A DNA stretch of 64,000 nt from an uncultured Eubacteriales bacterium (GCA_900545265.1 UQYI01000001.1:4145-68144); one strand, 5' to 3'. Positions 40,330 to 59,580 are shown, counted from the first letter of the stretch. Translations and numbers: made by a program. Notes: generated by a model not told the origin, from the letters alone.

Positions 40330-40515
40330 AAGCTGCCGGGAAGCGGGGGCGGGGCGCCGGGCGGCGGAACGCCGCTGCCCGGCCGCTTTGCGGCCGGGCC
40401 TTTGGCGCCGCAGGCGCCAAAGCCGGCGCCCCCCGGCTTTCGTATACAGACCGATCCCGTATCTGCACGGCCCATGCCCGCTGTTGGAAACCTCCTTTTC
40501 TCAAGGAGACCAGGA
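40330..40515 (+). repeat. GC-rich multi-hairpin intergenic repeat, copy A (type I)
   Basis: Hairpins GCGGCG-gaa-CGCCGC, GGCCGC-ttt-GCGGCC and CTTTGGCGC-cgcag-GCGCCAAAG. Tail GCGCCCCCCGGCTTTCGTATACAGACCGATCC ... CTTTTCTCAAGGA. The reverse complement of copy D aligns over most of its length. Confidence 0.75.
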
Positions 40516-40543
40516 GAAAAGAAAAAGGGGCCTTTTCGGCCCC
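40514..40543 (-). terminator. Rho-independent terminator after the YitT gene
   Basis: Minus strand reads GGGGCCGAAAAGGCCCC followed by TTTTTCTTTTC, 17 nt after the stop. Confidence 0.8.
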
Positions 40544-40559
40544 ATATCTTTTATGCGGT

Positions 40560-41450
40560 TTACAGATGCTTATCAAAATTGCCCAGAATGCCGCTGACGT
40601 TGAGAAACGTTACAAAGGCCCCGGGATCCGTTTCCTTGAGGATATGGCGCAGTTCCATAGCCTCGTACTGAGACATGACCATATACAGGATCTGATGCTT
40701 TTTGCCTGCAAAGGACCCCGTCCCCTCCCAGGAAGTAGCGGTGCGGTCAATGGAAGCCCGTATGGCAGGCATCACATCCTCCCGGCTGGTAATGATGATC
40801 GCCGCCACATTCCGGTTCTGAGCGTGGGTATAGTCGGTGACAAAATTGTACACTGCCACATAGATGAGGGAATAGATCACCGTGGAGAGATCATACATCA
40901 GGGCGCAGGCAGTAAACACGGCAATGTTGATCATCATGGATATCTTCCCCACGCTGAAGTTTCTGTCCTTCTGCATGAAGTACAGCCCCAGAATATCCTG
41001 TCCCCCGCCGCAGCCCCCATTCTGCAGGGTCATGCCGCAGCCATACCCCGCAATAACGCCGCCTACGATGGAAGCCGCCAGCTTATCCGTCAGAATAGGC
41101 ACAGTGGGAATGGGGATCAGTGTCAAAAACACCGTCTGAAAGGTCACGCATACCAGCGTATCCACAAAAAAGCGCTTTCCCAGCTTTTTATAGGCCAGCA
41201 CCAGCAGGGGCACGTTGATGATATACAGCAAAATACCGGCAATATCCACATTGGCCGGAATGGGGATATGGGCATAGTCTACCAGCAGGGTGCGCAGCAC
41301 CATGCCGATGCCAAGAAAGCCGCCGCTGTACAAAGAGATGGGTACGATAAACAGGTTCACCCCGGCGGCAAAAAGAAGTGTGCCCAGCACCGCCGTGGCC
41401 AGGCGCCTGCCGTAGGTTTTGAGAAAGTGCATCCTATCCGTCTTGTTCAT
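40560..41450 (-). CDS. YitT-family membrane protein (DUF161/DUF2179-like)
   Basis: Track ORF trimmed to MNKTDRMHFLK, which follows AAAGGAG. Multiple TM helices, then a C-terminal soluble domain ...ILYMVMSQYEAMELRHILKETDPGAFVTF. Confidence 0.75.
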   Translation of the reverse strand: MNKTDRMHFLKTYGRRLATAVLGTLLFAAGVNLFIVPISLYSGGFLGIGMVLRTLLVDYAHIPIPANVDIAGILLYIINVPLLVLAYKKLGKRFFVDTLVCVTFQTVFLTLIPIPTVPILTDKLAASIVGGVIAGYGCGMTLQNGGCGGGQDILGLYFMQKDRNFSVGKISMMINIAVFTACALMYDLSTVIYSLIYVAVYNFVTDYTHAQNRNVAAIIITSREDVMPAIRASIDRTATSWEGTGSFAGKKHQILYMVMSQYEAMELRHILKETDPGAFVTFLNVSGILGNFDKHL

Positions 41451-41690
41451 GAAAAAACTCCTTTTTCTGCGGTCACGCCATGGAAGTATAGCCCCGGCGG
41501 CGATCTTTGTCAACGGCTGATTTTTACGGTGGCTTTTCTGTAAAATATCTCCCTCTCCCCTGGCCTTTCCGGTGGGAGGAAAGCGAAAAATCACTTGTAT
41601 ATTTTGCGCTTATAGATTATAGTGAAGGGGCAGGCACCAGTAAAGAGCATTCAAAGCACTCTTTGCACAAGGTCTGCTCATGGAGGTTTT

Positions 41691-42575
41691 ATGTCCAACA
41701 GTAAGTATGCGGCTCTGGCAGCTACCATGGAGCATGGCAGTCTGACCCGGGCGGCTTCGGCCCTGGGATATACCCAATCCGGTGTAAGCCACCTGATACG
41801 GGCTCTGGAGCAGGAGGTAGGCTTTTCCCTGCTGAAGCGTTCCAAAAGCGGTGTGGAACTTACCCCAGAGGGAAAGCGCCTTATGCCCTATATCCAGCAA
41901 ATCCTCACCGCCGAAAAGGATATGCAGCGCCTGTGCGAGGAGCTGCGGGGCGTTTCCACCGGGCAGCTGACCGTGGGCACCTTTTCCAGCGCCGCTATTG
42001 CCTGGATGCCGGAGCTAACCCGGCGCTTTGCCGCCCTGCACCCCGGGATCTCTCTGGAGATCTACAACGATACCTATTCCCCTCTGGAGGAAGCTCTGCT
42101 GCGGGATCAGGTGGACTGTGCCTTTGTGACCGCACCCTCCCGGGAGGAATTCATCCTTTATCCCCTGTATAAAGACAGGCTCATGGCCGTTATGGACAGC
42201 GGCTGCCCGCTTTCCTCCAAAGCCCGTCTTACTGCGCAGGATCTGAAGGATCTGCCCTACATCGTCCCGGCGGAGGGCACCAACTACGATGCCGGGAAGC
42301 TCTTCCTTTCCGCCGGAGTAACGCCCACCGTCCGCTGTAATGCCGGAGACGATTATGCCGCCGCCGCCATGGCCCGAAAGGGACTGGGCTTTACCATTCT
42401 TCCGGAACTGCTGCTGCAGGACATCCTGCTGGGCGGGCTGCGCACCATTCCGCTGGCCGGTTCCGAACGGCGGATCTGCATGGCCGTAAACCGCTACCGC
42501 TACCGTTCCCCCGCCCTGCAAAGCTTTGTAAGCTTTGTTCAGGAAACCGTACCCAAGCTTATGTCCCATCAATAA
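41691..42575 (+). CDS. LysR-family transcriptional regulator
   Basis: Start MSNSKYAALAATMEHGSLTRAASALGYTQSGVSHLIRALEQEVGF (LysR HTH) follows GGAGG. Confidence 0.9.
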   Translation: MSNSKYAALAATMEHGSLTRAASALGYTQSGVSHLIRALEQEVGFSLLKRSKSGVELTPEGKRLMPYIQQILTAEKDMQRLCEELRGVSTGQLTVGTFSSAAIAWMPELTRRFAALHPGISLEIYNDTYSPLEEALLRDQVDCAFVTAPSREEFILYPLYKDRLMAVMDSGCPLSSKARLTAQDLKDLPYIVPAEGTNYDAGKLFLSAGVTPTVRCNAGDDYAAAAMARKGLGFTILPELLLQDILLGGLRTIPLAGSERRICMAVNRYRYRSPALQSFVSFVQETVPKLMSHQ

Positions 42576-42606
42576 TTCAATCAAATCAACGTAAAGGAGT
42601 AAACGT

Positions 42607-43680
42607 ATGCATCATTTTTCATCTATCCGCAGCAAGCTGGCCGCTTACGGCCTGGACGCCATTATGCTCACGGAGCAGTACAACCGCTTCTATGCGGCGG
42701 ATTTCCCCTCCACAGGCACCGACGGTCTGGCACTGATCACCCGGAACCGGAACTACTACTTTACCGATTCCCGCTACACTGTAGCCGCTCAGCGTCATGT
42801 AAAGGATGCGGTTATTTCCATCACCGCTCCCGGCCGGGGCTATGTGGAGCTGGTCAATGAAGTGATCGAAAACGAAGGCATCCGCAAACTGGGCTTTGAC
42901 GAAGGCTATATGACCGTTGCCGACTTCCGCCGCTATGAAGGAGCACTCAAGGCGGAGCTTCTCCCTGCCACGGCTCTTATGACCGGCTTACGGGTAGTGA
43001 AGGACGAGGAGGAACTGGAGCGCCTGCGCCATGCCCAGCGCATTGCCGATAAAGCCCTCACGGAAACCGTGCCCATGATCCGGCCCGGCGTTACCGAAAA
43101 GGAAGTGGCCGCCTACCTGACTTACCGGCTCCTGGCCAACGGGGCGGAAAACGTCTCCTTTGACCCTATCGTAGTTTCCGGCGAAAACGGCGCCATGCCC
43201 CACGGCGTCCCCAGCGAAAAGAAGATCCAGGATGGGGAATTCGTGACCATTGACTTTGGCGCCCTGAAGGACGGCTACTGCTCCGATACCACCCGAACCT
43301 TTGCCGTAGGCCATGTGACCGAAGAAATGGAAAAGGTCTACAACACCGTGCTCAAGGCCCAGACCACCGCTATTGCCGCTACCAGGGCCGGCATGACCGG
43401 CAAGGAGATCGACGGCATCGCCCGTAAGATCATTGCCGACGCCGGTTACGGCGAATACTTTGGCCACGGCTACGGCCACGGCGTAGGGGTGCAGATCCAT
43501 GAAGGCCCCAATGTAAACGCCCGGAATGACCAGCCCATGCCCGCCGGCAGCGTGACCAGCGCCGAACCGGGGATCTATCTGCCCGGCAAGTTCGGTGTGC
43601 GCATTGAGGACGTGGTGATCCTCCGGGAGGACGGTTATGAGGACCTGACTTCCCTGCCCAGGGAGCTGACCATTCTGTAA
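42607..43680 (+). CDS. M24-family Xaa-Pro aminopeptidase/dipeptidase
   Basis: Creatinase-like N-terminal domain, then metal ligand contexts DFGA..DGYCSD, GHGYGHGVG, EPGIY and IED. Confidence 0.9.
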   Translation: MHHFSSIRSKLAAYGLDAIMLTEQYNRFYAADFPSTGTDGLALITRNRNYYFTDSRYTVAAQRHVKDAVISITAPGRGYVELVNEVIENEGIRKLGFDEGYMTVADFRRYEGALKAELLPATALMTGLRVVKDEEELERLRHAQRIADKALTETVPMIRPGVTEKEVAAYLTYRLLANGAENVSFDPIVVSGENGAMPHGVPSEKKIQDGEFVTIDFGALKDGYCSDTTRTFAVGHVTEEMEKVYNTVLKAQTTAIAATRAGMTGKEIDGIARKIIADAGYGEYFGHGYGHGVGVQIHEGPNVNARNDQPMPAGSVTSAEPGIYLPGKFGVRIEDVVILREDGYEDLTSLPRELTIL

Positions 43681-43753
43681 GCATCCCCCGGATCGCTCAT
43701 GGTTTGTCCATGTGTGAAAGGATCTGCGGCGCCTAAGCTGCTGACACGTATTC

Positions 43754-43796
43754 AGGACTGCGAAGGAAGATATGTTTTCCCCGCAGTCCTTTTTTG
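43754..43796 (+). terminator. Rho-independent terminator after the M24 peptidase gene
   Basis: AGGACTGCG-(19 nt)-CGCAGTCCT followed by TTTTTTGA. Confidence 0.65.
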
Positions 43797-43854
43797 ATGC
43801 ATCCGGTACGGAGCAGCAAGCTGGAAACCGCTGTGAACCGGAGCTTCTTGGGGC

Positions 43855-44010
43855 ACGCAGGGTGGGGGCGCAGGTTCCGACTGCAGGTCGGAACGCTGCG
43901 GGGGCTCCCCCCCGCAGGCGTGCCGGAGGCACGCCTGCGCCCCCGGGCCCCGTATACGGCGCTGCTCCCGCATCCCTGCCCCTGTCCCTCACCTGAGCGA
44001 AGGCCCCGTT
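43855..44010 (+). repeat. GC-rich multi-hairpin intergenic repeat, copy B (type II)
   Basis: GGGGGCGCAGG; GTTCCGAC-tgcag-GTCGGAAC; CTGCGGGGG..CCCCCGCAG; GCAGGCGTGCC-gga-GGCACGCCTGC; GCGCCCCCGGGCCCCGTATAC. Confidence 0.75.
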
Positions 44011-44194
44011 TTTCGCACTCATGCTCGGCCAATCTCTCCCGCCGCCCTGTACAATAAGGAGCAGAGACGCATTCCCGGGCACCGTCTTACTTCCTGCCTG
44101 GACGTCCCTAGACGTGCAAACCCCGTACAGGCAAAGTCTGTACGGGGGGCTTTTATACTGTATGGGTCGTCCTGTTCCCTGGAAACCGGGGAAC

Positions 44195-44743
44195 TCAGGT
44201 ATACATGGCCATGGCGTTTCGGGTCATGGCGGAGGCAAAAGCGGCGATCTGCTCCCGGGGATATTTCCCATATCCCGTCAGGATCACCTGCAGCAGCCCA
44301 TTGGCCAGACAGGTAAATAGCATATCTATCTCCCCTTCGGTGGCTTTTGGCAGGCTGGCCCGCCACAAAGTACGGGTCTTATAGCGGGCAATGGCGATCA
44401 TCCGCTCGGCCAGCGCTCTGTCCTTCTGCTCCAGGATCAGCACCCGGCAGACCTGACTGTTTTCATCCATGATCCGGTACACGGCTTCCATAAGATCCTG
44501 CACATCCATCCCTCCTGCACTGGCACTGAGGGAATTTTCAAATGCCCGCAGCAGCCCGTCTTCCAAAGCATTCAAAACGGCATAGCAGTCGGCATAATGG
44601 GCATAAAAGGTGGCCCGGTTGATCTGTGCCAGAGCGCAGAGCTCCGTTACGGTGATCTTGTTCATGGGCTTTTGTTCCAGCAGCGTCAGCAGCGCTTCCT
44701 GAATGACCCGCCTGGTATAGCGGACCCGCGCATCTAGTTTCAT
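44195..44743 (-). CDS. TetR/AcrR-family regulator
   Basis: RYTRRVIQEALLTLLEQKPMNKITVTELCALAQINRATFYAHY (TetR HTH). Confidence 0.9.
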   Translation of the reverse strand: MKLDARVRYTRRVIQEALLTLLEQKPMNKITVTELCALAQINRATFYAHYADCYAVLNALEDGLLRAFENSLSASAGGMDVQDLMEAVYRIMDENSQVCRVLILEQKDRALAERMIAIARYKTRTLWRASLPKATEGEIDMLFTCLANGLLQVILTGYGKYPREQIAAFASAMTRNAMAMYT

Positions 44744-44970
44744 ATGATCCTCTCCTGTCCATCCATTCTTATTGCCCCGGATAAGCCCTGCCGCCGGCGG
44801 GTTTTGGCCGCTGACACAAACTTCTCACATTGTTATGCAACGCTTTCCCGGCAAGTGTTGGAAAACTAACATTTGGCTGCAAGGTGTACCTTGCGGCTCG
44901 GTTCTTATTGAGTATACTATACACATGAAAGAAAAACAACACCTGTACCGGTTGTTGAAAGGAGGCTCCC

Positions 44971-45969
44971 ATGTTTAACAGATATCTGGTCACCGGCGCC
45001 ACGGGCTTTCTGGGCCATACGGTGGTGCACATGCTGGCAAACAGGCACAAAGCGGTAACGGCTCTGGTGCTTCCCGAGGATCCGGGTGCGCAACGGCTGC
45101 CGGAGGGGGTGGACATCGCCCTGGGGGATGTGACCGATCCGGAAAGTCTGGAGCCCGTGTTCGCCTCCCTGGGGGAAAATGCCTGTGTGATCCACTGCGC
45201 CGGCCTCATCTGCATCGATACGGTGCCCGGCCCCATGGTACGCAAAGTCAATGTAGAGGGCACCCGGCACGTGGTGGATCTTTGCCGCCGCTACGGGATT
45301 CGGAAGCTGGTATACGTCAGTTCTGTCCATGCCATTCCGGAACGGAAGGACGGCTGTGCCATGACGGAGATCCGGGATTTTTCGCCCCAGAATGTATCCG
45401 GCGAGTATGCAAAAACCAAGGCCGAGGCCACTGCCTACGTGCTGGAAGCAGCCCGGCAGGGGCTCAACGCTTCGGTGGTGCAGCCTTCCGGCATAGTAGG
45501 GCCCCAGGATTATGCCATAGGCAGCCTGAGTTCCATGATCATCTCCTACTGCAAGGGCAAACTGCCCATGGGCGTGGAAGGCGGATATGACTTTGTAGAC
45601 GTGCGGGATGTGGCCGCCGGGATCCTGGCCTGCTGTGAAAAGGGCCGTCCGGGAGAATGCTACATTCTTTCGGCAGAGTATGTAAGCATCCGCCGAATGC
45701 TGGACAGCCTGTGCCATATTTCCAAAGGGAACCGGGTAAAACTGCTGGCTCCGGTGTGGCTTGCCAAGGCCGTGTCTCCCTTTGCCGAATGGGTCAGCAA
45801 GCTGAAGAAGGAAAAGCCCTACTTTACCCCCTATGCCGTATCGGTACTGGGCTCCAACGGCCTGTTCTCCCACGCCAAGGCCGCCCGGGAGCTGGGGTAT
45901 TCCCCCCGGCGCTTCTCCGTGACGCTGCGGGATACCTATCACTGGCTCAAGGGAGTTGGGTATTGCTGA
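44971..45969 (+). CDS. NAD(P)-dependent epimerase/dehydratase-family SDR
   Basis: MFNRYLVTGATGFLGHTVV (Rossmann motif GxxGxxG) and the Y..AK context YAKTKAEA. Confidence 0.85.
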   Translation: MFNRYLVTGATGFLGHTVVHMLANRHKAVTALVLPEDPGAQRLPEGVDIALGDVTDPESLEPVFASLGENACVIHCAGLICIDTVPGPMVRKVNVEGTRHVVDLCRRYGIRKLVYVSSVHAIPERKDGCAMTEIRDFSPQNVSGEYAKTKAEATAYVLEAARQGLNASVVQPSGIVGPQDYAIGSLSSMIISYCKGKLPMGVEGGYDFVDVRDVAAGILACCEKGRPGECYILSAEYVSIRRMLDSLCHISKGNRVKLLAPVWLAKAVSPFAEWVSKLKKEKPYFTPYAVSVLGSNGLFSHAKAARELGYSPRRFSVTLRDTYHWLKGVGYC

Positions 45970-45990
45970 TATCCCATAGATATAAAACAA

Positions 45991-46024
45991 CCGAAGCATG
46001 ATATCGTGCTTCGGCTGTTTATTT
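45991..46024 (+). terminator. Terminator between the SDR (+) and XRE (-) genes
   Basis: CCGAAGCA-tgatatcg-TGCTTCGG followed by CTGTTTATTT, with an A-rich left flank. Confidence 0.65.
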
Positions 46025-46035
46025 ATCGAAAAAAT

Positions 46036-46278
46036 TCAATGGATTTCCTGCTCAAGGTCGTCAAACTGCGATCCGCCGAAAAACTCCCGTATGGAAATGT
46101 TCAGTCCGTCGCACAGTTTTTTTACGGTGGATACAGTGGCACTGTTGTTCCGGCCGCTGAGAATGTTTTGCAGAGTTGACTGGGTCACTCCCGACATGGT
46201 CGCCAGCTTATTGCAGGTTATATTCCGTTCCTGACAGAGCTCCAATATCCGGAGCCGCACCGCTTCTCCTACCCGCAC
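46036..46278 (-). CDS. Small XRE-family HTH protein (80 aa)
   Basis: GTG start follows GAAGGAGG (the longer track ORF was rejected). ITCNKLATMSGVTQSTLQNILSGRNNSATVSTVKKLCDGLNISIREFF. Confidence 0.75.
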   Translation of the reverse strand: MRVGEAVRLRILELCQERNITCNKLATMSGVTQSTLQNILSGRNNSATVSTVKKLCDGLNISIREFFGGSQFDDLEQEIH

Positions 46279-46417
46279 AAAAGCCTCCTTCGCATAATGT
46301 AGGTATAGTATTGAATATTTTCTCCAAAAGTTACCCCTTTTGGGTTGACTTTTGGAGAAAGATTTGTTATGCTTTCCATGCGAAAGCGAATTTTGAATGA
46401 AATGGAAGGAAAAAAGT

Positions 46418-46924
46418 ATGGCAAGAATGGAAAGCAAGAGTGTAAGGGTTGCCCCGGCTGCAGAACAAATCACCATTGATCGGTATCAGAAATTCGGCTG
46501 GGTTCTGCTCGGTTCTCAGGAAGTGTTTAATAGGGATTCTCACCTGGAGGAAGGTGCCCCCGGCACTATCAACAGCGTGACCGAAACCACACATTTTGTA
46601 AAACTTGTTTTCCAGCGGGATATGGATATGCCTTATTACAACGAAATAAAGGAACTGGACGAACAGTTTGAAGTCACCCTGGATGAGCTTGACTCTTCCA
46701 AGCGTCTTCGGCGACGGTCTCTGCTCTGGTCCATTCCTCTGGGACTTTTTGTCATGATGTGTGCATCGGGCTCCAAGAGTATCGTCGTGGACATTGTCTG
46801 CCTGATCGGCGGCGCCTGCGTTATTGCCGGCGGCATTTATCTCAGGAAACGGGCCACAAAGCAATGCGATGAGCTGACAGCAAAACGAGATGAAATTCTA
46901 ACCGCCATAGCACATTATGTGTAA
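46418..46924 (+). CDS. Hypothetical membrane protein (168 aa)
   Basis: Start MARMESK follows GGAAGGA. Soluble N-terminal domain, then two TM helices (LLWSIPLGLFVMMCA, IVCLIGGACVIAGGIYL). Divergent from the XRE gene. Confidence 0.6.
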   Translation: MARMESKSVRVAPAAEQITIDRYQKFGWVLLGSQEVFNRDSHLEEGAPGTINSVTETTHFVKLVFQRDMDMPYYNEIKELDEQFEVTLDELDSSKRLRRRSLLWSIPLGLFVMMCASGSKSIVVDIVCLIGGACVIAGGIYLRKRATKQCDELTAKRDEILTAIAHYV

Positions 46925-46927
46925 TCC

Positions 46928-47401: not shown

Positions 47402-47543
47402 AAAACGGAACAGGATATTCCTCTCCGCAGCTATTATTTCCAGCTGCTGTTGCTGCAGCTTTACGATAATAGAGGTGGACTATCAGTATGCAAAGAGGGT
47501 GTATCGCTCCTCGAAAATATCTCCTAAAAAGGTACGGCACATA

Positions 47544-47582
47544 AAAAAACCGCAGTTCGCTTTTTGCGGCTGCGGTTTTGTG
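47544..47582. terminator. Bidirectional terminator
   Basis: AAAAAACCGCAG-ttcgctttttgcgg-CTGCGGTTTTG, between convergent genes. Confidence 0.65.
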
Positions 47583-47586
47583 CTGC

Positions 47587-48832: not shown

Positions 48833-48954
48833 GGGCTTCCCTGGATGCAGGCTCCTTTCTTTGAATGTATCCGGGCCTCCGGTTTTGCCCGGCGACCGTT
48901 TTAAGAACGTGTATAAGCGACAGAAAGGCAAATCGCTCACCTGCCTTTTTGCGT

Positions 48955-49135
48955 GGAAACGATGGTGGGGGCGCACTGCGTGCCAGCAGGCACGCCTGCG
49001 GTGCGGATGCCCCGCAGAGTTCCGGCGGAGCAGCGCCGGAACGTGCGCCCCCCGGGCTGCGTATACAAGCCGATCCTTTACCGCAGCGCCCCCGACCCCG
49101 CCGCAGACCGGCCGCTTTTCTCAAGGAAGGCCGTC
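48955..49135 (+). repeat. GC-rich multi-hairpin intergenic repeat, copy C (type II, modules swapped)
   Basis: GGGGGCGCAC; GCGTGCC-agca-GGCACGC; GTTCCGGCG-gagcag-CGCCGGAAC; GTGCGCCCCCCGGGCTGCGTATACAAGCCGATCC ... CTTTTCTCAAGGA. It abuts the ftsH stop. Confidence 0.75.
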
Positions 49136-51731: not shown

Positions 51732-53066
51732 TCATACCTCCCGGATAGAATCAAACTGAAAATGAAGGATCTGCCGGGTGGCGGCGGTGATCCGCACCCG
51801 GTCGTCTATGGTATGGCCCGCCGCATACACGGCCCCGATGGCATCAAACACCACCGGCGTCTGCCGCAGGGACAGCGGTACCTTTTTATCCGTAAAATAG
51901 TCTGAAAACAGCTTGGAGCCCTTCATGCCCAGAGGGGTAAAGCGCTCTCCCCGCCGCCAGGGACGCACCAGCAGAGGCCCCTGAAGCGTTTCTTCATCCA
52001 CATAGGCTTCCCCGGGGCCGCAGGGGATGCAGGCTTTGCTTACCCGCTCCAGCAGCAGGGAGCCAAAGGGCGTTTCTGTCTTTTTTCCCACCTCAAGCGG
52101 CAGGACATAAGCCTCAGCTTCAAGGGTACCGGGGGCGTAAAGCCTTATGGCATCCCCTTCCGCCCGGGCAGTCCATCCCCCCGTCAGGGGCGCCATGCGT
52201 CCGCCCGGCCCGGAGAGCAGCCCTTCCAGCCGGCGTACATCCTCCCGGGTGTAATCGGAGGTATGGGCACGCAGGATCCGCAGCAGCACCCGTCTGCCAA
52301 GCACCGGAGGCAAAGCCTCCAACGCCCGGCGGCTGCCGCGGCAGTTCTTTTCCGCCTCCTCCGCCAGAGTTTCCAGATACCCGTCCTCCTCCCGCACCAG
52401 TGCGGCAGTATGGGCCATGTGCGCAGCGGCCTGAGGATTCACTGCTTTCAAAGCCTCCATGGCACCGTGACGGAGCCGGTTCCGATCCGCTTCATCCCCG
52501 GCGTTGGTGGAATCCGTGCAAAAGGATTCTCCCCGTTCCGCCAGATAGGCAAGGATATCCTCTTTGCCTGCTTCCAGCAGCGGCCGGACATACAGACCGC
52601 TTTGGGGCGCCATGCCCCCCAGCCCTCGAAGGCCGGAACCACGGATCAGGTGCATAAGCACCGTTTCCGCCTGATCCTCCCGATGATGACCCAATGCCAC
52701 GGCCTCTGCCCCGGTCCGGGCGGCGGCCCGGCGAAGAAACCCGTAGCGAAGTTCTCTTGCGGCACTTTCCACGCTGATCCCCTTCTCCCGGGCGGCGGCA
52801 GGCACGTCCCCTCTTTCAAACAGAAAGGGGATCCCCAGTCTTTGGCACAGGGCCCGGCAAAATGCCAGATCCCGCTCCGCCTCTCCCCCGCGGATGCCGT
52901 GGTGATAATGGGCGGCATATACGGCCCCCAGCTCCCCCTGCCGGGAAAGCCGAGCCAGTTCCAGCACCAGAGCGGTGGAATCTGCTCCGCCGGAAAAGGC
53001 CGCCAGCACAGCGCTGTTTTTATGGAGGCCGCAGCCCCGAAGAACAGCCGGGCAGATCAGCTCCAT
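51732..53066 (-). CDS. tilS: tRNA(Ile)-lysidine synthase
   Basis: PP-loop motif AAFSGGADSTAL, and the synteny with hpt and ftsH. Confidence 0.9.
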   Translation of the reverse strand: MELICPAVLRGCGLHKNSAVLAAFSGGADSTALVLELARLSRQGELGAVYAAHYHHGIRGGEAERDLAFCRALCQRLGIPFLFERGDVPAAAREKGISVESAARELRYGFLRRAAARTGAEAVALGHHREDQAETVLMHLIRGSGLRGLGGMAPQSGLYVRPLLEAGKEDILAYLAERGESFCTDSTNAGDEADRNRLRHGAMEALKAVNPQAAAHMAHTAALVREEDGYLETLAEEAEKNCRGSRRALEALPPVLGRRVLLRILRAHTSDYTREDVRRLEGLLSGPGGRMAPLTGGWTARAEGDAIRLYAPGTLEAEAYVLPLEVGKKTETPFGSLLLERVSKACIPCGPGEAYVDEETLQGPLLVRPWRRGERFTPLGMKGSKLFSDYFTDKKVPLSLRQTPVVFDAIGAVYAAGHTIDDRVRITAATRQILHFQFDSIREV

Positions 53067-53095
53067 AAATTCCTCCGATGATACTCTATATTATA

Positions 53096-53124
53096 ATGAT
53101 ACCCTTTCCCGCAGCTTTTGACAA
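53096..53124 (-). promoter_or_regulatory. Candidate sigma-70 promoter of tilS-hpt-ftsH
   Basis: Minus strand reads TTGTCA, a 17-nt spacer, then TATCAT, 30 nt upstream of the tilS ATG. Confidence 0.4.
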
Positions 53125-53148
53125 GGGTCTGGGCAAAAAAACGACGGC

Positions 53149-54096
53149 TCAGTTCACGCAGTTCTGAGGCTGCCCTGCCAGAGCGCGGCGCAGGTTTTCC
53201 GCCGATACATCCAGTATCTGCTGCCGGGCCTCCCGGGTAGCCCAGGCGCAATGGCCGGAAAGCACGCAGTTAGGTGCCTTCAGCAGGGGATTGTGGACGG
53301 AAATGGGCTCTCTGGAAACCACATCAGCTCCATAGCCCCCCAGTTTTCCGGTGCTCAGGGCATTGGCCACGTCCTTTTCCACCACCAGGCTCCCCCGGCC
53401 GGTATTGATAAGGATGGCACCCGTGCGCATCATGGAAATGGTCTGCTCGTTCAGGAAGCCTATGGTATCCCCTTTGGCTGGGCAATGAAGGCTCACTACA
53501 TCGGCGGATCTCAAAAGGGTTTCCAAAGACACGTACTTGCCTGCAAACCCGGGCTTTTTGTGTGGATTGAAGCCCAGTACCTCCATGCCCATGGCTTTGG
53601 CGATCTCCGCCACCCGGCGGCCTATGGCGCCGCAGCCCACGATGCCCATGGTGCGGCCGTACAGGCTCACGGGAGTGCGCTCCCACCAGCAGAAGTCCGG
53701 ACAACTGGTCCACGCTCCCTGATGGATCCGGGCATTGTGGTAGCCCAGGTTCAGCGTCAGTTCCAGCAGCAGGCCGATGGCCGTTTGGGCCACGGGCTCC
53801 GTGGCATAACCGGGCACGTTGCACACGGGGATACCCAGTTCCCTTGCCCCTTTTATATCCACCACATCGTAGCCGGTGGCCAAAACGCCTATGAACTTCA
53901 GGTTGGGGTTGCCGGAAAGCTGCTCCCGGGTCAGGCACACTTTATTGGTAAATACGGCGTCGGCCCCTCGCAGGCGCTGGGAAACAAGGATGGCGTCGGT
54001 GCGGTCATATAAGGAAAGGGTGCCCTGCTCCCGGAGCCCGGACCAGTCCAGTTCCTCGGGCCGCAGGGATTTACTGTCCAATACCACTATCTGCAT
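53149..54096 (-). CDS. D-isomer-specific 2-hydroxyacid dehydrogenase (glycerate dehydrogenase-like)
   Basis: Trimmed to MQIVVLD, which follows AGGAGG. NAD motif GIVGCGAIGRRVA, and the R..G.L / E...H catalytic contexts. Confidence 0.85.
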   Translation of the reverse strand: MQIVVLDSKSLRPEELDWSGLREQGTLSLYDRTDAILVSQRLRGADAVFTNKVCLTREQLSGNPNLKFIGVLATGYDVVDIKGARELGIPVCNVPGYATEPVAQTAIGLLLELTLNLGYHNARIHQGAWTSCPDFCWWERTPVSLYGRTMGIVGCGAIGRRVAEIAKAMGMEVLGFNPHKKPGFAGKYVSLETLLRSADVVSLHCPAKGDTIGFLNEQTISMMRTGAILINTGRGSLVVEKDVANALSTGKLGGYGADVVSREPISVHNPLLKAPNCVLSGHCAWATREARQQILDVSAENLRRALAGQPQNCVN

Positions 54097-54239
54097 GGAA
54101 TTTCCTCCTGAAACGTGTCGAATGCTGTATGCATCATTGTATCCGCTTTCCCCCTTCCAGTCAAATGAAATATGCAGCTTTCCGGCTGCCGGTGCGTCCG
54201 TATACATAGAATCCCTGCGAAAAACTTCCCTGAAAACGA

Positions 54240-54400
54240 AATAGGGACGCGGGAATACGGAGAAGGTTCGTATACGAAAGTCAGGGGCGCTGGCTTTGGG
54301 CGCCTGCGGCGCCCAAAGGCCCGGCTGCCCTGCAGCCGGGCGGGCGGCGTCCCGCCGCCCAGCGCCCCCGCTCCCCGCTTCCCCTTTCCCTGAGTCTGTA
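54240..54400 (-). repeat. GC-rich multi-hairpin intergenic repeat, copy D (type I, inverted)
   Basis: The reverse complement reads GGGAAGCGGGGAGCGGGGGCGC..GGCGGCGGGACGCCGCC..CCCGGCTGC-agg-GCAGCCGGG..CTTTGGGCGCC-gca-GGCGCCCAAAG..GCGCCCCTGACTTTCGTATACGAA, collinear with copy A. Confidence 0.75.
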
Positions 54401-54419
54401 AACGCCGCCATCCGCTCTA

Positions 54420-54448
54420 TTGCAAAGCCCCGGGGAACGTGCTATAGT
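54420..54448 (+). promoter_or_regulatory. Candidate sigma-70 promoter of trkA-trkH
   Basis: TTGCAA, a 17-nt spacer, then TATAGT, 43 nt upstream of the trkA ATG. Confidence 0.5.
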
Positions 54449-54490
54449 ACAACCAACCTTATGAAATAGTGTAAAAAGGGGATTTTTACC

Positions 54491-55861
54491 ATGTTCATCC
54501 TTATTGTGGGCCAGGGCAAGGTAGGCTCCACCCTGGCGGCTCAGCTTTCCGCCGAGGGGCACGATCTGGTGCTCATCGATACAAACAGCGCCGTGTTGCA
54601 GCATTTGCAGGAGACGCTGGATGTGGCCACTCTGTGCGGCAATGGAGCGGCGGCGGATGTGCTGTTGGAGGCAGGAGCTGACCGGGCAGATCTGCTCATT
54701 GCCTGCACCAACGGCGACGAGGTGAACCTGCTCAGCTGCATGGTAGCCAAAAAGCTGGGGACGGAGAACACCATTGCCCGGGTGCGCAACCCGGAATATG
54801 ACTTTGATCTGCGGCTGCTGAAGGACGAGCTCCACGTTTCTCTGGTCATCAACCCGGAGCTTACCGCCGCCCGGGAGATATACCGCAATTTGCAGTTTCC
54901 CACATTCATGAAGCGGGATACCTTTGTGCGGGGCAAAGCGGATCTTGTGGAGCTGCGCATCGGCAAGGACAGCCCCCTGAACGGGCTACGTCTGGCTGAT
55001 CTGCCCAAAATCACCAAAGAAAAGGCTCTGATCTGCGCCGTGGAGCGGGAAGGCCGGCTGACCATTCCTCACGGCAGTTTTGTATTGCATCAGGAGGACA
55101 AGATCATCATTGCCGCCGTAGCCTCCGGTCTGGTGCGCTTTATCAAGGATCTGGGGCTGCCCCCCACCCGGATCCGTCGGGTCATGATCATCGGCGGCAG
55201 CCGCACGGCCATCCATGTGGCCAAAATGCTTATGAAGAGCCGGGTGCAGGTGACCATTATGGAAAACAACGCTCAGCGGGCCCGGGAACTGACCCTGGAA
55301 GTGCCGGAAGCCACCGTTCTTTTCGGCAACGGCACCTTTCAGGATGTACTGGTCAGCGAGGGCATACGGGATGTGGATGCCGTGCTGGCTCTGACGGGCA
55401 TAGACGAAGAAAATGTGATCATCTCCATGTTTGCCAACTACATGGGTGTGCCCAAAACCGTTACCAAGATCGCCCGGACGGAATTCATGGACGTATTCAC
55501 CCAGGCGGGACTGGATTCCATCGTCAGCCCCAAGCTGCTGACGGCCAACGAGATCATCCGCTACGTGCGGGCCATGAGCTCCAGCGCCGGGCAGAGCATG
55601 ATCGCCCTTTCCCGCATTATGGACAGTAAAGCCGAGGCTATGGAGTTTATCGTCCCCGGGGACGCCCCCTATGTGGGGATCCCCTTTAAGAACCTGACCA
55701 TACAGCCCAACACCATTGTGGCGGCCATTGCCCGAGGCCGGGAGGTCATCATTCCCTCCGGCGGCGATATGCTTCTGGGAGAAGACCGGGTAGTGGTCAT
55801 TACCGGCCGGGATAAATCCGTAGGCGGGCTGGAGGAGATCTTCCGGGGAGGCGTGCAATGA
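54491..55861 (+). CDS. trkA: Trk potassium uptake protein TrkA (two RCK/NAD units)
   Basis: MFILIVGQGKVGSTLA and a second unit VMIIGGSRTAIHVA. Overlaps trkH by 4 nt. Confidence 0.9.
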   Translation: MFILIVGQGKVGSTLAAQLSAEGHDLVLIDTNSAVLQHLQETLDVATLCGNGAAADVLLEAGADRADLLIACTNGDEVNLLSCMVAKKLGTENTIARVRNPEYDFDLRLLKDELHVSLVINPELTAAREIYRNLQFPTFMKRDTFVRGKADLVELRIGKDSPLNGLRLADLPKITKEKALICAVEREGRLTIPHGSFVLHQEDKIIIAAVASGLVRFIKDLGLPPTRIRRVMIIGGSRTAIHVAKMLMKSRVQVTIMENNAQRARELTLEVPEATVLFGNGTFQDVLVSEGIRDVDAVLALTGIDEENVIISMFANYMGVPKTVTKIARTEFMDVFTQAGLDSIVSPKLLTANEIIRYVRAMSSSAGQSMIALSRIMDSKAEAMEFIVPGDAPYVGIPFKNLTIQPNTIVAAIARGREVIIPSGGDMLLGEDRVVVITGRDKSVGGLEEIFRGGVQ

Positions 55862-57312
55862 ATGCCCGCTCCGTCCGTTACTATCTGGGGCACATCCTCC
55901 GCTGGGAAGCCGTTTTGATGCTTCCCTCCCTGTTTGTCTCTCTGTACGATGGGGAATGGGCGGCGGTAAAAGCCTTTTTGATCACCACGGCACTGCTGCT
56001 GGTGGTATCCACCTGCCTGCTGTATATCCGTCAGCAGGGCTCCCACAGCCTTCAGGCCCGGGAGGGCATGCTTACCGTGGGTCTGAGCTGGGTGCTCCTG
56101 TCTTTGTTTGGAGCCCTTCCTTTCACCCTTTGCGGGGATATCCCCCACTATATAGACGCAGTGTTTGAATCCGTCTCCGGCTTTACCACCACAGGGGCCA
56201 GCATCCTTTCAGATGTGGAGGCGCTCCACCGCGGGATGCTGTTCTGGCGGAGCTTTACTCATTGGGTGGGCGGTATGGGCGTGCTGGTATTCGTAATGGC
56301 CATTATCCCCCTGAGCAAGGGCAACGGAGATTCCCTTCATCTGCTCCGGGCGGAAAGCCCCGGCCCCTCCGTGGGAAAGGTAACGCCCACCATGTCCAAA
56401 AACTCCCGGGTGCTGTACGCCATCTATGTGGGCATGACACTGGTGACCATTCTGCTTCTGCTTCTGGACGGGATGCCCCTCTTTGACAGCCTGTGCAACG
56501 CCTTTGGAGCGGCGGGTACCGGAGGCTTTTCCATCAAAAACAACGGCATGAACGGCTACAGCGCCCTGTCCCAATCCATTATTACGGTGGCCATGCTGCT
56601 GTTTGGGGTAAACTTTTCCATATATTACCTTCTGCTGACCCGGGAAGCCAAACGGGCCTTTAAGGATGAAGAGCTGCGGTGGTACCTGGCCATTGTACTT
56701 CTGGCGGTAGGAGCCATTGTGATCAACGTAAAGGGCATATTCCCTTCGTTTTGGGCGGCCGTGCACCATGTGTTCTTTACCGTTTCTTCCATCATCACCA
56801 CCACGGGATATGTCACGGTGGACTTTAACCTGTGGCCGGAATTTTCCCGGTGGATACTGCTGCTGTTGATGATCCTGGGGGCTTGTGCAGGCTCTACCGG
56901 CGGCGGCACCAAGGTCTCCCGGCTGATCATGCTTTTCAAGAGCCTGAAGAACGAGGTGGCCTCCATGATGCGGCCCCGGTCCGTCCATACGGTGCGCATC
57001 AACGGCAAGCTGGTGGAGGAAAGCACCATTAAGGGCGTATATGTGTTTTATCTCACCTATCTGTTCATTGCGCTGGTTTCCCTGCTGTTTGTTTCCACGG
57101 ATAATTTTGACGGCATGACTACCTTTTCCTCCGTCATTGCCTGTTTGGGCAATATCGGTCCGGGGCTTAACCTGGTGGGGCCTACGGGGAACTTCGGCGC
57201 CTACAGCGATCTGAGCAAAATCGTTCTTTCTCTGGACATGCTGTTCGGCCGGCTGGAGATCTTCCCCCTGCTGCTGCTGTTCAGCCCTGCTGCCTGGAGC
57301 CGCCGGGGCTGA
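55858..57312 (+). CDS. trkH: Trk potassium uptake membrane protein TrkH
   Basis: 484 aa, polytopic, with TrkH-type selectivity loops (SGFTTTGAS, TGGFS, TTTGY, GSTGGG). Confidence 0.9.
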   Translation: MNARSVRYYLGHILRWEAVLMLPSLFVSLYDGEWAAVKAFLITTALLLVVSTCLLYIRQQGSHSLQAREGMLTVGLSWVLLSLFGALPFTLCGDIPHYIDAVFESVSGFTTTGASILSDVEALHRGMLFWRSFTHWVGGMGVLVFVMAIIPLSKGNGDSLHLLRAESPGPSVGKVTPTMSKNSRVLYAIYVGMTLVTILLLLLDGMPLFDSLCNAFGAAGTGGFSIKNNGMNGYSALSQSIITVAMLLFGVNFSIYYLLLTREAKRAFKDEELRWYLAIVLLAVGAIVINVKGIFPSFWAAVHHVFFTVSSIITTTGYVTVDFNLWPEFSRWILLLLMILGACAGSTGGGTKVSRLIMLFKSLKNEVASMMRPRSVHTVRINGKLVEESTIKGVYVFYLTYLFIALVSLLFVSTDNFDGMTTFSSVIACLGNIGPGLNLVGPTGNFGAYSDLSKIVLSLDMLFGRLEIFPLLLLFSPAAWSRRG

Positions 57313-57355
57313 GGGATCGCCTATTCTGTTAAAGCTTATATCCCTGCTGGGGCCC

Positions 57356-58243
57356 ATGGCGCTTCTCATCGGGCTGGGGTGTCTGTGCAGAAGAAAAAAT
57401 ACCTTCTCCCCGGAAGAGATAGGCGGACTGAAAAAGCTGGTGGCCCGGGTGCTGCTGCCCTTTCTGGTATTTACTTCCTTTGCCACGGTGGAGCTGGAAG
57501 TGCGCACTCTGCTGCTGCCCCTGCTCAGCGCCCTGATCTTCCTGGGCGCTTTTGGGATGGGGAAACTGTGCCGCACGCTGCCGGGGATCTATGGAGAATA
57601 CCACCCCTTTGTGGCCGGCTCTACCGAAGCAGGCATGGTGGGATACGGGCTGTTTGCCATGCTCTTCGGAAAAGAGAGCCTTCCTTACTTTGTTATCTTT
57701 GATGCGGGGCAATCCCTGATCTTTTTCACGGTATATCTGCCTGCGCTGCGGCGGTTCACCGAAGGGAAGGGAACCTTTCAGCTCCGCTCCCTGCTGAAGG
57801 ATCCGCTGCTGCTGAGTATGCTTCTGGGCCTGGCCGCCAATGTGACCGGCCTGTGGCAGCTGCTGTGCGCTTCCCCGGCGGGGCCGGCAGCCGAGGATAT
57901 TCTGGCCGTTCTTTCGACCCCCGTATCCTGCATCATGCTGTTTGCCGTGGGCTATGGACTGCAGCCGGACAGAGATACCCTGAAGCCGGTATGCCGCTCA
58001 GCCCTGCTGCGCATAGGATATATGCTGCCCATGAGTCTTGGCCTTATGGCACTGATCCGGCATCTGGGCATGGACGTCCGGTATGCCTGGGGCGCCTTGC
58101 TGTTCTTTGCTTTGCCCCCCAGCTATCTGCTTTCGGCCTATGTGCGGGAGGAACGGCCCCAGCACTATGTCAATACCTTTTTGAGCCTGTATGTGCTCTA
58201 TACTCTGGCCGTGGCGCTGAGCATCGCCCTCTTCGCCGCCTAA
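57356..58243 (+). CDS. AEC (auxin efflux carrier) family transporter, N-terminus uncertain
   Basis: Polytopic, with AEC-like LLIGLGCLCRR and LPFLVF. The frame stays open and hydrophobic upstream of the ATG (PILLKLISLLGP) with no ATG/GTG/TTG. Confidence 0.7.
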   Translation: MALLIGLGCLCRRKNTFSPEEIGGLKKLVARVLLPFLVFTSFATVELEVRTLLLPLLSALIFLGAFGMGKLCRTLPGIYGEYHPFVAGSTEAGMVGYGLFAMLFGKESLPYFVIFDAGQSLIFFTVYLPALRRFTEGKGTFQLRSLLKDPLLLSMLLGLAANVTGLWQLLCASPAGPAAEDILAVLSTPVSCIMLFAVGYGLQPDRDTLKPVCRSALLRIGYMLPMSLGLMALIRHLGMDVRYAWGALLFFALPPSYLLSAYVREERPQHYVNTFLSLYVLYTLAVALSIALFAA

Positions 58244-58262
58244 AGAAGGCTTCCGTAAACGC

Positions 58263-58298
58263 AAACGCCCCGCCGTCAAATGACTGCGGGGCGTTTTA
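58263..58298 (+). terminator. Rho-independent terminator after the AEC gene
   Basis: AAACGCCCCGC-cgtcaaatgact-GCGGGGCGTTT followed by TAT. Confidence 0.7.
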
Positions 58299-58329
58299 TG
58301 TGTGCGGATCCGAGTTGCATTTCTCCGTG

Positions 58330-58590
58330 CTGCCCGGAGGCCGCCGGAACGGGGCCGCTGCCTTGCGAAGGTGCGTACAGGCGGAACGTGGGGGCGCATG
58401 TTCCGGCGGCTCCGCCGCCGGAACGCTGCGTGGGCAAAGCCCCCGCAGGCGTGCCCGAAGGGCACGCAATGCGCCCCCAGCCCCCGAGCCGACGCAGCCG
58501 GGAGCAGCCGGGTACCAGCCCCCGTGTGCCTCCGGCCGGCACAGATACGGAAAAACCCCTGCCGCAGATAAAAAGGGAAACCGGCTGACC
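58330..58590 (+). repeat. GC-rich multi-hairpin intergenic repeat, copy E (type II)
   Basis: GGGGGCGCATG; GTTCCGGCGG-ctccg-CCGCCGGAAC; GCGTGCCC-gaa-GGGCACGC; AATGCGCCCCC. It lies just 3' of rph. Confidence 0.7.
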
Positions 58591-58618
58591 GATCTCCCCG
58601 CTGCGGCTGTAATAAACG

Positions 58619-59341
58619 CTATTTTCCCAGTATCGCCCGCTGCTTTTCCATCAGGGTGCGGATACCCGCCTCCCCCAAAGCCAGCAGTGCATCCAGTTCC
58701 CGGCGAGAAAAAGAGCGTCCTTCTCCCGTGCCCTGGATCTCGATAAACTCTCCGGCTTCGTTCATCACCAGGTTCATATCCACCTGCGCCCGGGAATCCT
58801 CCTGATAGCACAGATCCAGCAGTGGCCTGTCTCCCTCCAATCCCACGGACACGGCTGCGATCTGATGACATATGGGGTCTGCCTGAAGCCTGCCTTCCTT
58901 CAGCCAGCGATCCACTCCCAGCCGCAGGGCCGCCCAGGCTCCGGTAATGGAAGCCGTGCGGGTGCCGCCGTCAGCCTGAAGCACATCGCAGTCGATATAG
59001 ATCACGTTCTCCCCCAGAGCCTGCCTGTCCAGCGCCTGCCGGAGACTCCGGCCGATGAGCCTCTGTATCTCCGTGGAGCGGCCGTCTTTTTTGATGCCGT
59101 CCCGCTTTTTTCTGTCCCCGGTAGAACTGGGCAGCATGGCATATTCCGCCGTCAGCCAACCCATTCCCGTATTTTTCAAAAAGGGCATAGCCCCCTCCTC
59201 CAGCAAGGCGGTGCACAGCACCCGGGTTTCTCCCCAGTTGATGAGCACGGAGCCCCCTTTGGTTTTGGTAAAATCCGGTATCAGCTCCACGGGCCGCAGT
59301 TCTGCCGCCCCTCTGCCGTCAAAGCGCATGAAATCCTCCAT
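58619..59341 (-). CDS. rph: Ribonuclease PH
   Basis: MRFDGRGAAELRPVEL...GSVLINWGETRVLCTA...DCDVLQADGGTRTASITGA. Confidence 0.9.
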   Translation of the reverse strand: MEDFMRFDGRGAAELRPVELIPDFTKTKGGSVLINWGETRVLCTALLEEGAMPFLKNTGMGWLTAEYAMLPSSTGDRKKRDGIKKDGRSTEIQRLIGRSLRQALDRQALGENVIYIDCDVLQADGGTRTASITGAWAALRLGVDRWLKEGRLQADPICHQIAAVSVGLEGDRPLLDLCYQEDSRAQVDMNLVMNEAGEFIEIQGTGEGRSFSRRELDALLALGEAGIRTLMEKQRAILGK

Positions 59342-59429
59342 CTTTCCCCTGCTTTCCGGGCCAGTGCCCTGTTTTTCCTTATACTAACACGATAGTAGGA
59401 GATTGTCTATTCCGGAAAACGCACAGCTC

Positions 59430-59580
59430 GAAAACCGTCCGGCTCCGGGGAAGGGCGCTGCGCTTTGGCAAAGCCAAAGACAGCGGGCCCCGCTTGCTGG
59501 GCCCGCTGGGGCGGCGTACCGCCGCTCGCAGCGCCTCCTCCGTCTATGCGCAGGCCTTCGATCTTTCACCGATTGCCCGC
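59430..59580 (-). repeat. GC-rich multi-hairpin intergenic repeat, copy F (type I, inverted, diverged)
   Basis: The reverse complement has GCGGCGGTACGCCGCC, GGGCCC..GGGCCC, CTTTGGC-ttt-GCCAAAG and GCAGCGCCCTTCCCC..GGTTTTCG, in the same module order as copies A and D. Confidence 0.55.

Follow-up and report, generated by a model that had tools for sequence, protein, structure and literature searches.

A probable palindromic DNA repeat family with a three-hairpin core, abundant in a narrow group of uncultured human-gut Clostridia

We studied a stretch of 64,000 nucleotides from an uncultured Eubacteriales bacterium (GCA_900545265.1, UQYI01000001.1:4145-68144; hereafter the window, numbered from its first letter), in which six intergenic elements, named A to F and all lying within the right ~24 kb, raise the question of whether they are terminators, structured RNAs, protein-binding sites or copies of a dispersed repeat. 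An earlier note, written from the sequence alone, had described them as a GC-rich multi-hairpin family with two core types, resembling repetitive extragenic palindromic (REP) sequences and bacterial interspersed mosaic elements (BIMEs) or miniature inverted-repeat transposable elements (MITEs). All six elements are present, with predicted folds and a covariance model in agreement, and they form a true dispersed repeat family, with an outer stem and flanks common to both core types. Its copies abound in a single narrow group of uncultured human-gut Clostridia. We consider it probable that the six elements are lineage-specific, non-coding, non-autonomous palindromic DNA repeats, which behave as junk or structural DNA of the REP/BIME or MITE type and are neither genes nor terminators. 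Lineage-specific intergenic palindromic repeats are known as a kind; what is new here is the unusual three-hairpin junction core.

Architecture of the six copies

The core of each copy in the window is 79-87 nt long (79-90 nt across the family) and consists of a 9-10-bp outer stem around three adjacent near-perfect hairpins, which abut with 0-2 nt at the junctions and give a four-way junction overall. Either single strand of the core, or its extruded duplex, is predicted to form this junction. Folding of the six cores as single-stranded DNA gave the four-way junction as both the minimum-energy and the centroid structure, with free energies (dG) of -40 to -51 kcal/mol and z scores of -6.1 to -8.9, none of 200 shuffles being equally stable; RNA parameters gave the same fold shape on both strands. 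The two core types have unlike hairpin sequences and share the outer stem and the arms that flank it (see below). The type II outer stem reads GGGGGCGCA(C/G/T)...TGCGCCCCC and that of type I GGGGCGC(C/T)GG...CC(G/A)GCGCCCC, with a weaker version in copy F, GGCGCTGCG...CGCAGCGCC. Enclosing ends had been noted earlier for type II only; they are there, but type I has an outer stem too, and both types show one common architecture. The copies are as follows.

Copy A, 40323..40510, + strand: whole element, type I, delimited by sequence (nhmmer envelope 40323-40482)
Copy A arms: left arm ...ACGGAAGCTGCCGGGAAGCGGGGGCG; right arm with CGTATAC at 40441-40447, distal CCGTATC..GCACGGCCCATGCC, then CTTTTCTCAAGGA at 40495-40507
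Copy A core, 40351-40432, + strand: outer stem GGGGCGCCGG/CCGGCGCCCC; hairpins GCGGCG, CCCGGCCGC and CTTTGGCGCC; DNA dG -50.6, z -7.7; covariance model 37.4 bits
Copy B, 43815..43992, - strand: whole element, type II (nhmmer envelopes 43810-43992); CGTATAC at 43951-43957
Copy B core, 43865-43943, - strand: outer stem GGGGGCGCAG/CTGCGCCCCC; hairpins GTTCCGAC, CTGCGGGGG and GCGTGCC; z -7.4; model 75.8 bits on the - strand
Copy C, 48945..49131, + strand: whole element, type II (nhmmer envelope 48945-49116), an inverted repeat relative to B; CGTATAC at 49060-49066; CTTTTCTCAAGGA at 49115-49127
Copy C core, 48968-49051, + strand: z -7.0; model 85.8 bits on the + strand
Copy D, 54236..54395, - strand: whole element, type I (nhmmer envelope); palindrome GGTTCGTATACGAAAG at 54267-54282
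Copy D core, 54284-54368, - strand: z -7.4; model 31.1 bits on the - strand
Copy E, 58343..58525, - strand: whole element, type II, without a CGTATAC tail (nhmmer)
Copy E core, 58391-58477, - strand: z -8.9; model 84.2 bits
Copy F, 59433..59563, - strand: whole element, degenerate type I, without a tail; outer stem GGCGCTGCG/CGCAGCGCC; nhmmer E 0.13
Copy F core, about 59453-59537, - strand: z -6.1; model 34.6 bits on the - strand

Pattern counts showed that these structures are not a product of base composition: GGGGCGC-N55-85-GCGCCCC occurs five times in the window against 0.05 expected (0 of 100 shuffles reached five), and GCGCCCC-N3-12-CGTATAC four times against 0 expected. A generic repeat finder independently paired A with C, B with C (inverted) and A with D (inverted). 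A covariance model trained solely on type II cores from outside the window was then run over the whole window with filters off, and yielded exactly six full-length matches below E = 0.01, type I copies included; the type II copies C, E and B scored 76-86 bits and the type I copies A, F and D 31-37 bits (E 1e-4 to 1e-3), and the next-best match had E = 1.4. Since the model finds nothing else below E = 1 in 64 kb, six copies are the full count for the window, and the scan returned none in the left 40 kb; the earlier note had already reported the accessory left third as free of them. Note that the CGTATAC heptamer by itself occurs 27 times in the window (3.3 expected), many of these inside the repeated YD-type motifs of RHS genes and unrelated to the elements.

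The strand on which the model matches best shows that D and F run opposite to A, as had been described, and C opposite to B and E. In copy C, the hairpin order previously reported as swapped arises because the core as a whole is inverted with respect to the CGTATAC tail. A GCGCCCC..CGTATAC tail, attributed before to both types, is found in four of the six copies and is missing from E and F, and the 13-mer said to be shared by A and C, CTTTTCTCAAGGA, occurs only at 40495 and 49115.

Copies elsewhere, arms and change at the DNA level

Public genomes and metagenomes were scanned with the exact pattern GGGGCGC-N55-85-GCGCCCC-N5-10-CGTATAC; the family-wide counts of copies, cores and loci rest on the metagenome matches listed and are lower bounds. 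The 185,579 species-representative genomes gave 45 stretches, one of them true, from 'uncultured Lachnospiraceae bacterium UMGS1691', in which a 3.7-kb contig holds two copies of type II. The other 44 were discarded as chance matches: seven labelled Clostridia or Eubacteriales show no hairpins, and the rest, judged by taxon, come from unrelated GC-rich organisms. Metagenome contigs gave at least 105 stretches with the pattern, nearly all from the human gut. Among the matches listed, the outer stem with three hairpins folds in 114 of 136 pattern matches in public DNA, and a structural search of those loci found at least 122 copies, at least 86 distinct cores and at least 58 distinct loci; the 86 distinct cores, again among the matches listed, comprise 70 of type II, 11 of type I and 5 variants. 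The earlier note had asked whether further copies exist and whether the similarity would survive formal alignment: more than 100 copies are found elsewhere, and the similarity holds.

Density is high: some individual contigs carry 8-10 copies in 150-220 kb, or at least one per 20-25 kb, as compared with six in 24 kb of the window. Three metagenome loci correspond to the window's own A and B regions, one of them on a 380-kb contig holding further copies. A gut contig bearing both of the UMGS1691 copies matches the contig of that genome at 95% identity, and the family is therefore present in at least two very close species. Among relatives whose RNase PH is 77-82% identical, and which carry no label beyond 'Clostridia bacterium', the 37 kb around rph contain no copy, and one of these relatives retains the tig-clpP-clpX synteny without copies. 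No pattern match was found in viral contigs, phage records or plasmids, and a phage or plasmid origin was rejected on that ground. In Rfam 15 there was no match at gathering score in the 64 kb and none relevant at E <= 5 in 40.2-59.8 kb; the window contains no tRNA or tmRNA. A full-text literature search found no account of a comparable family, in keeping with the earlier statement that no description was known, and no paper on UMGS1691.

Copies elsewhere are also intergenic. Genes were called there with a scorer of codon usage, trained on those genes of the window that Pfam supports; each of the 48 copies for which gene context was available lay between genes (16 convergent, 23 tandem and 9 divergent pairs), and the tail side pointed toward a gene's 3' end in 32 of the 48. 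At three loci (L071, L099 and L107) a parS-like site, TGTTCCACGTGAAACA, stands ~150 nt from a type II copy and adjoins a soj/spo0J (ParA/ParB) pair, which places this repeat-rich locus probably near the replication origin. Two other leads were dropped. Spurious open reading frames (ORFs) running through the elements, used as a handle into protein databases, gave four uninformative matches. The tail of copy A (40438-40510; TCGTAACAAGG..CCGTATC..ACCTCCTTTCTAAGGAG) aligns with the 16S rRNA 3' end and the start of the internal transcribed spacer with z = 5.5, a likeness that we regard as coincidence because the mean z over 48 loci was 0.8, against 1.0 for the reverse complement.

The arms are conserved on both sides of the core, are partly palindromic and imperfect inverted copies of each other, and extend the element to a full length of about 200 bp. 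The tail-side arm has the consensus CCGGGnTn-CGTATAC-GAACCnGGnC-CCGTAT-n-GCnGCGnCCC(ATGCC); its start, proximal to the core, carries a consensus 12-16-bp palindrome, (GG)TTCGTATACGAA(CC), followed by a CCGTAT half-site and GCxGCGxCCC. On the opposite side stands ...ACGGAAGCTGCCGGGAAGCGnGGGCGG or else the tail-side arm in degenerate, inverted form, and a few copies (L104, L110, L126 and L138) have GTATAC on both sides. Non-orthologous copies are 78-94% identical over a span that starts 15-55 nt ahead of the core and stops 15-57 nt behind it, and the similarity fades without a sharp end; the unit is therefore a mosaic of about 115-200 bp. Profile searches with the flanks gave no support for a fixed core orientation relative to a 'long tail', and both orientations exist.

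Pairing within the cores is nearly perfect: 2,949 of the 2,965 predicted pairs (99%) in the 86 distinct cores are Watson-Crick. Counted by strand, G.T pairs come to 16 and 8, and the mean dG is equal on the two strands (-68.9 and -69.5). When 35 type II cores were aligned, each helix proved almost constant in its 5-8 basal pairs, and the variable pairs, at the hairpin tips, mostly swap GC for CG. Between orthologous copies of different samples, substitutions amounted to 0.40% in stems, a third of the 1.2% in the farther, mostly coding flanks; arms differed by 1.9% and loops by 4.3%, about four times the value of the flanks, and 8 of the 24 loop differences were exact reverse-complement flips. 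Whole hairpins are deleted in some strains. Ten human-gut metagenome contigs with identical RNase PH carry E and F unchanged, apart from one (L005) in which copy E has a clean 44-nt deletion that removes two hairpins. Near-perfect pairing, the lack of strand bias, the occurrence of both orientations, loop flips, hairpin deletions and placement outside transcription units (see below) together led us to read the elements as DNA palindromes, these features being typical of DNA hairpins or cruciforms with template switching and not of selected RNA helices.

The same structures systematically break short-read metagenome assemblies. Nine of the ten independent contigs with identical rph (L001-L010) end inside core D or E, seven of them inside D (54298-54359), with the break in E at 58454, and breakage of this kind helps to account for the fragmented state of UMGS1691, the sole matching species-representative genome. 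The elements also yield spurious Pro/Gly/Ala/Arg-rich ORFs, internal deletions and possibly chimeric joins. At one locus (L089, about 3700-3850) ~140 nt of junk rich in poly-C/G stands in place of part of a type II core, and the probable cause is an artefact of sequencing or assembly at the hairpins. In four sets of loci (L113/L141, L103/L112, L057/L065/L139 and L066/L075) the sequences are 95-98% identical on one flank and the core and diverge within a few bases of the core edge; the data fit recombination breakpoints at the cores and chimeric assemblies equally.

Genomic setting and candidate explanations

The genes of the window, assigned with Pfam, are arranged around the copies as follows.

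3-6734 and 11812-18228, - strand: RHS toxins
23.6-31.7 kb: opp transporter
33.4-37.5 kb: D-proline reductase genes
Next: permease, then proline racemase (39025-40050, - strand); then copy A
Between A and B: YitT (-), LysR (+), M24 peptidase (+)
Between B and C: TetR (-), epimerase (+), helix-turn-helix and leucine-rich repeat genes, PHP (-)
Between C and D: ftsH, hpt, tilS and 2-hydroxyacid dehydrogenase, all -
Between D and E: trkA, trkH and a Mem_trans gene, all +
Between E and F: rph (-); beyond F: clpX, clpP and tig, all -

Copy A is flanked by the YitT terminator (40527-40543) and a TTTACA-17-TATAAT promoter-like site (40163-40135); copy B lies between the convergent M24 peptidase (+) and TetR (-) genes; copy D separates the promoter-like sites 54164-54136 (-) and 54420-54448 (+), which bears out the earlier mention of one copy in a divergent promoter region; copy E sits between two convergent terminators, that of the Mem_trans gene at about 58262-58298 and that of rph at 58599-58574; and copy F between the clpX terminator (about 59618-59650) and a promoter-like site of rph (59409-59381). 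The terminators at 40527-40543 and 58599-58574 came from a scan and those at about 43755-43795, 58262-58298 and 59618-59650 from direct reading. Five of the six copies (A, B, D, E and F) thus lie outside terminators and promoters, the sole exception being C, directly 3' of the ftsH stop codon (49140). An intrinsic terminator is a GC-rich hairpin followed directly by a T-run, and no T-run follows the outer stem in these copies; the elements are not terminators, and separate hairpin-plus-T-run terminators sit between genes and elements. A further terminator-like hairpin with a 12-bp stem, followed by GGCTTTTATA, was seen at 44121-44147 (+), ~110 nt downstream of copy B with no + strand gene between.

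A search for a mobility partner was negative throughout. Pfam revealed no transposase or integrase domain among the window's genes, and likewise no Y1 transposase, TnpA or TnpB domain. The RAYT-type TnpA that the earlier note had proposed to look for was not found: tblastn with E. coli RayT against the window and about 0.9 Mb of related loci gave a best E of 2, which is noise. No transposase recurs as a neighbour in those sampled loci, the recurrent neighbouring proteins being ABC ATPases, a hydrogenase, LysR regulators and cell-wall proteins, and genes sandwiched between copies are housekeeping ones (aminoacyl-tRNA synthetases, Hsp20, ParA/ParB, MreB and similar). With only noise from tblastn and neighbours of common or housekeeping types, RAYT or another transposase was rejected as a partner within the window and the roughly 0.9 Mb sampled. 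Anchor-pair searches for empty sites gave only internal length variants and one poly-C/G junk stretch, and a gene-pair search found no cross-species orthologous spacer, the nearest relatives (RNase PH 77-82%) being too rearranged for base-level comparison. No direct repeat recurs at the similarity limits as a target-site duplication would, the element ends themselves not being sharp. Insertion polymorphism between strains, which had also been suggested for study, was not seen: 105 of 105 orthologous pairs were occupied, and the sole polymorphisms were internal deletions (between strains and in one genome pair at 95% identity).

The account that we favour for these elements, a non-autonomous palindromic repeat family, can be put as follows. 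The family would have multiplied by copying inside one narrow clade of uncultured human-gut Clostridia, and its copies would have settled, harmlessly, in spacers that are not transcribed, behind a terminator and ahead of the next promoter. Template switching within a strand, at hairpins or cruciforms, could keep the stems perfect, correcting stems and flipping loops, and selection on DNA structure may add to their maintenance. The arms, chiefly the GTATAC palindrome, are most likely a putative binding site of a protein that copies or tolerates the element. Present-day effects are probably structural, namely hot spots of recombination or deletion, breaks in sequencing and assembly and possibly a barrier between transcription units.

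Several observations weigh against this account. No direct sign of mobility was found: empty sites, target-site duplications and sharp ends were not seen, and there was no transposase in the window or in about 0.9 Mb. The stems evolve three times more slowly than the neighbouring, mostly coding flanks, which could reflect selection for a host function and not self-correction. The mild orientation bias of the tail toward gene 3' ends (32/48) might hint at a role in transcripts, and copy C follows the ftsH stop with no terminator between. In-place inversion of the whole core, which would account for the two core orientations, was seen in none of the 105 orthologous pairs. Finally, the apparent narrow range of the family is a lower bound because the scans demanded exact matches.

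The slow change of the stems is among the arguments for the idea that the copies are host-domesticated structural sites, loaded or bound by a nucleoid-associated protein, a topoisomerase, a junction-binding protein or a dimeric helix-turn-helix protein recognising TTCGTATACGAA, with a role in chromosome organisation or insulation. BIMEs of E. coli have been assigned proposed chromosome-organising roles with gyrase, IHF and DNA polymerase I. Besides stems that are better conserved between strains than coding flanks, a conserved 12-16-bp palindrome with a half-site in the proximal arm, the precise placement between terminators and promoters (between two divergent promoters in one case) and the retention of one architecture, outer stem and arms by two unrelated hairpin sets are what such sites would be expected to show. 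We nevertheless judge it unlikely: no candidate protein was found, the arms decay and vary widely among copies, some strains tolerate copies that lack two hairpins, and the absence of the family from the nearest sampled relatives means that any function would be very recent.

A related proposal starts from the constancy of the architecture across two unrelated sets of hairpin sequences and both orientations. A stem with three hairpins that mimics a Holliday junction, beside a 12-16-bp GTATAC palindrome, could mark an unrecognised class of structure-specific element, the substrate of a junction-recognising transposase or recombinase or of a host junction-binding protein, distinct from the REP/RAYT and IS200/IS605 systems with their single hairpins; selection, and not passive correction of palindromes, would then maintain it. 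We hold this possible at a low probability.

Selection on the RNA is distinctly doubtful. The elements would then be small RNAs or modules of 3' or 5' untranslated regions, such as exonuclease-blocking stabilisers comparable to REP in mRNA 3' ends, selected as RNA four-way junctions. The folds are very stable, 8 of 34 pairs show double-sided changes that preserve pairing, the tail side shows the bias toward gene 3' ends already mentioned and copy C lies right behind ftsH with no terminator between. However, the two strands show no asymmetry (G.U 16 vs 8, dG equal on both), G.U makes up just 0.5% of pairs, which is unusual for selected RNA helices, and the core can point either way with respect to its flanks and the neighbouring genes. 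Five of the six window copies lie beyond canonical terminators or between promoters, loop flips and GC-CG swaps at the tips are the signature of a DNA palindrome, and Rfam gave no match even at E <= 5.

In a further reading the elements would be nested, the arms being an older palindromic repeat or a preferred target and a smaller mobile core, type I or II, having inserted centrally in either direction. Arms common to both core types, the absence of in-place flips between strains and the about equal frequency of type II cores in each orientation relative to the CGTATAC tail (44 vs 42 copies and 16 vs 21 distinct loci, among the matches listed) agree with this. A core-less arm should then exist, and none was found: 56 of 56 arm matches in about 0.83 Mb of loci adjoin a core. 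The outer stem is moreover continuous with the arms and common to both types. Insertion of the core into pre-existing arm repeats was accordingly rejected for these loci, and we consider nesting very improbable; flipping of the whole core in place between strains was rejected as well (0/105). Independent GC-rich terminators or chance hairpins of no common origin, to which the intergenic position near gene 3' ends might point, have virtually no chance of being the answer, given homology through stems, junction nucleotides and 15-55 nt of flank, pattern counts far above shuffles, a covariance model that recovers all six copies, more than 100 homologous copies elsewhere, and the lack of a T-run where separate canonical terminators are present.

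Taken as a palindromic repeat family, the elements are of interest on several counts. Dispersed palindromic repeats are, to our knowledge, well studied in Proteobacteria and hardly in gut Clostridia, and here an uncultured gut lineage owns an abundant one with an unusual multi-hairpin junction core. The family is a possible strain-typing marker and a natural system in which to study the upkeep of perfect DNA palindromes, with stems corrected and loops flipping.

Some features of the window stand apart from the repeats. The two RHS genes (3-6734 and 11812-18228, both -) encode giant proteins, one with a PT-HINT and the other with an NlpC/P60 C-terminus; between them are small ORFs without a Pfam match and a 300-nt block repeated with 93% identity (9425-9724 / 12487-12786), and the region resembles a polymorphic-toxin locus with orphan modules. 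An OppC-type permease (26219-28171, -; OppC_N and BPD_transp_1) carries an inserted RCC1-like repeat domain, an unusual fusion. The D-proline reductase cluster (33381-33626, 33654-34106 (-), 34405-36207 and 36226-37512), upstream of the proline racemase, includes PrdA-like, GRDB/PrdB-like and RnfC-like genes, with the PrdB-like gene divided between two neighbouring ORFs, the pattern that an in-frame TGA read as selenocysteine would give. The amino-acid permease is represented by two overlapping ORFs (37597-38352 / 38318-39103, -), one covering the C-terminal and the other the N-terminal half of the Pfam model, a frameshift that reflects either a pseudogene or a sequencing error.

Comparison with known systems

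The likeness to REP/BIME or MITE put forward in the earlier note stands as an analogy of behaviour and not as membership of either class, because features that define REPs and MITEs were absent or not found. Like REPs, BIMEs and REPINs, the elements are short GC-rich palindromes, strictly extragenic (48 of 48 here) and present in many copies per genome; there are several subtypes per genome, in both orientations, and mosaics with conserved linker motifs; and they are species- or genus-specific and often lie beyond gene 3' ends. A REP unit consists of a single hairpin, its basal stem 7-20 bp and its loop 2-5 nt long, or of one long bulged hairpin, and a cognate RAYT (TnpA-REP) gene is present in the genome, usually flanked by copies (REPtron). 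The present family differs in having a closing stem with three hairpins in ~85 nt, against a single imperfect hairpin of ~35 nt, in lacking a RAYT in the window and in about 0.9 Mb of related contigs, and in its host, a Clostridia lineage, REP hosts being Proteobacteria (E. coli, Pseudomonas and others). The definition in PMC6006769 asks for GT[AG]G at a distance of 0-2 nt on the 5' side of the hairpin foot. No such tetranucleotide was found 0-2 nt from the stem foot here, where the neighbours of the outer stem are CC(N3-6)CGTATAC or GGGAAGCG(N)GG; the sole conserved motif nearby is the palindrome CGTATACG, with a conserved GTAT 5-10 nt from the foot.

Bacterial MITEs (Correia/NEMIS, ERIC, RUP, bcr1 and others) are likewise non-coding, intergenic elements of 150-250 bp with lineage-specific expansion, and their resemblance extends to two arms that are imperfect inverted copies, the whole unit being able to fold into a long structure. 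Unlike them, the family shows gradual fading of similarity, is very GC-rich and has an internal multi-hairpin junction, and no sharp terminal inverted repeats, target-site duplication or parent insertion sequence (IS) with the same ends was found. PATEs, derived from IS200/IS605, have the left and right subterminal hairpins of the cognate IS and no terminal inverted repeats, and a fixed tetra- or pentanucleotide stands 5' of their insertion point.

A modular counterpart in a Firmicute, Streptococcus pneumoniae, is the BOX element (boxA-boxB-boxC), an intergenic repeat of variable module number and order with a stable predicted structure, for which we know of no associated transposase. Its sequence is unrelated and its composition different, and structurally its modules form linear blocks, whereas here hairpins are nested within a closing stem. 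Transcription and effects on neighbouring genes are known for BOX; nothing of that kind is shown for this family. The mobile GC clusters and palindromic repeats of yeast and green-algal mitochondria and the hairpin-loop inversions of chloroplast spacers involve GC-rich perfect palindromes in intergenic DNA that undergo loop or tip inversions and gain or lose whole hairpins by DNA-level template switching, and we know of no dedicated enzyme for them; this parallel of mechanism concerns another genetic system without sequence homology. By analogy, REP/BIME elements appear closest in behaviour, and if a dedicated protein exists for the three-hairpin family, the REP/RAYT model would be extended to a new structure class.

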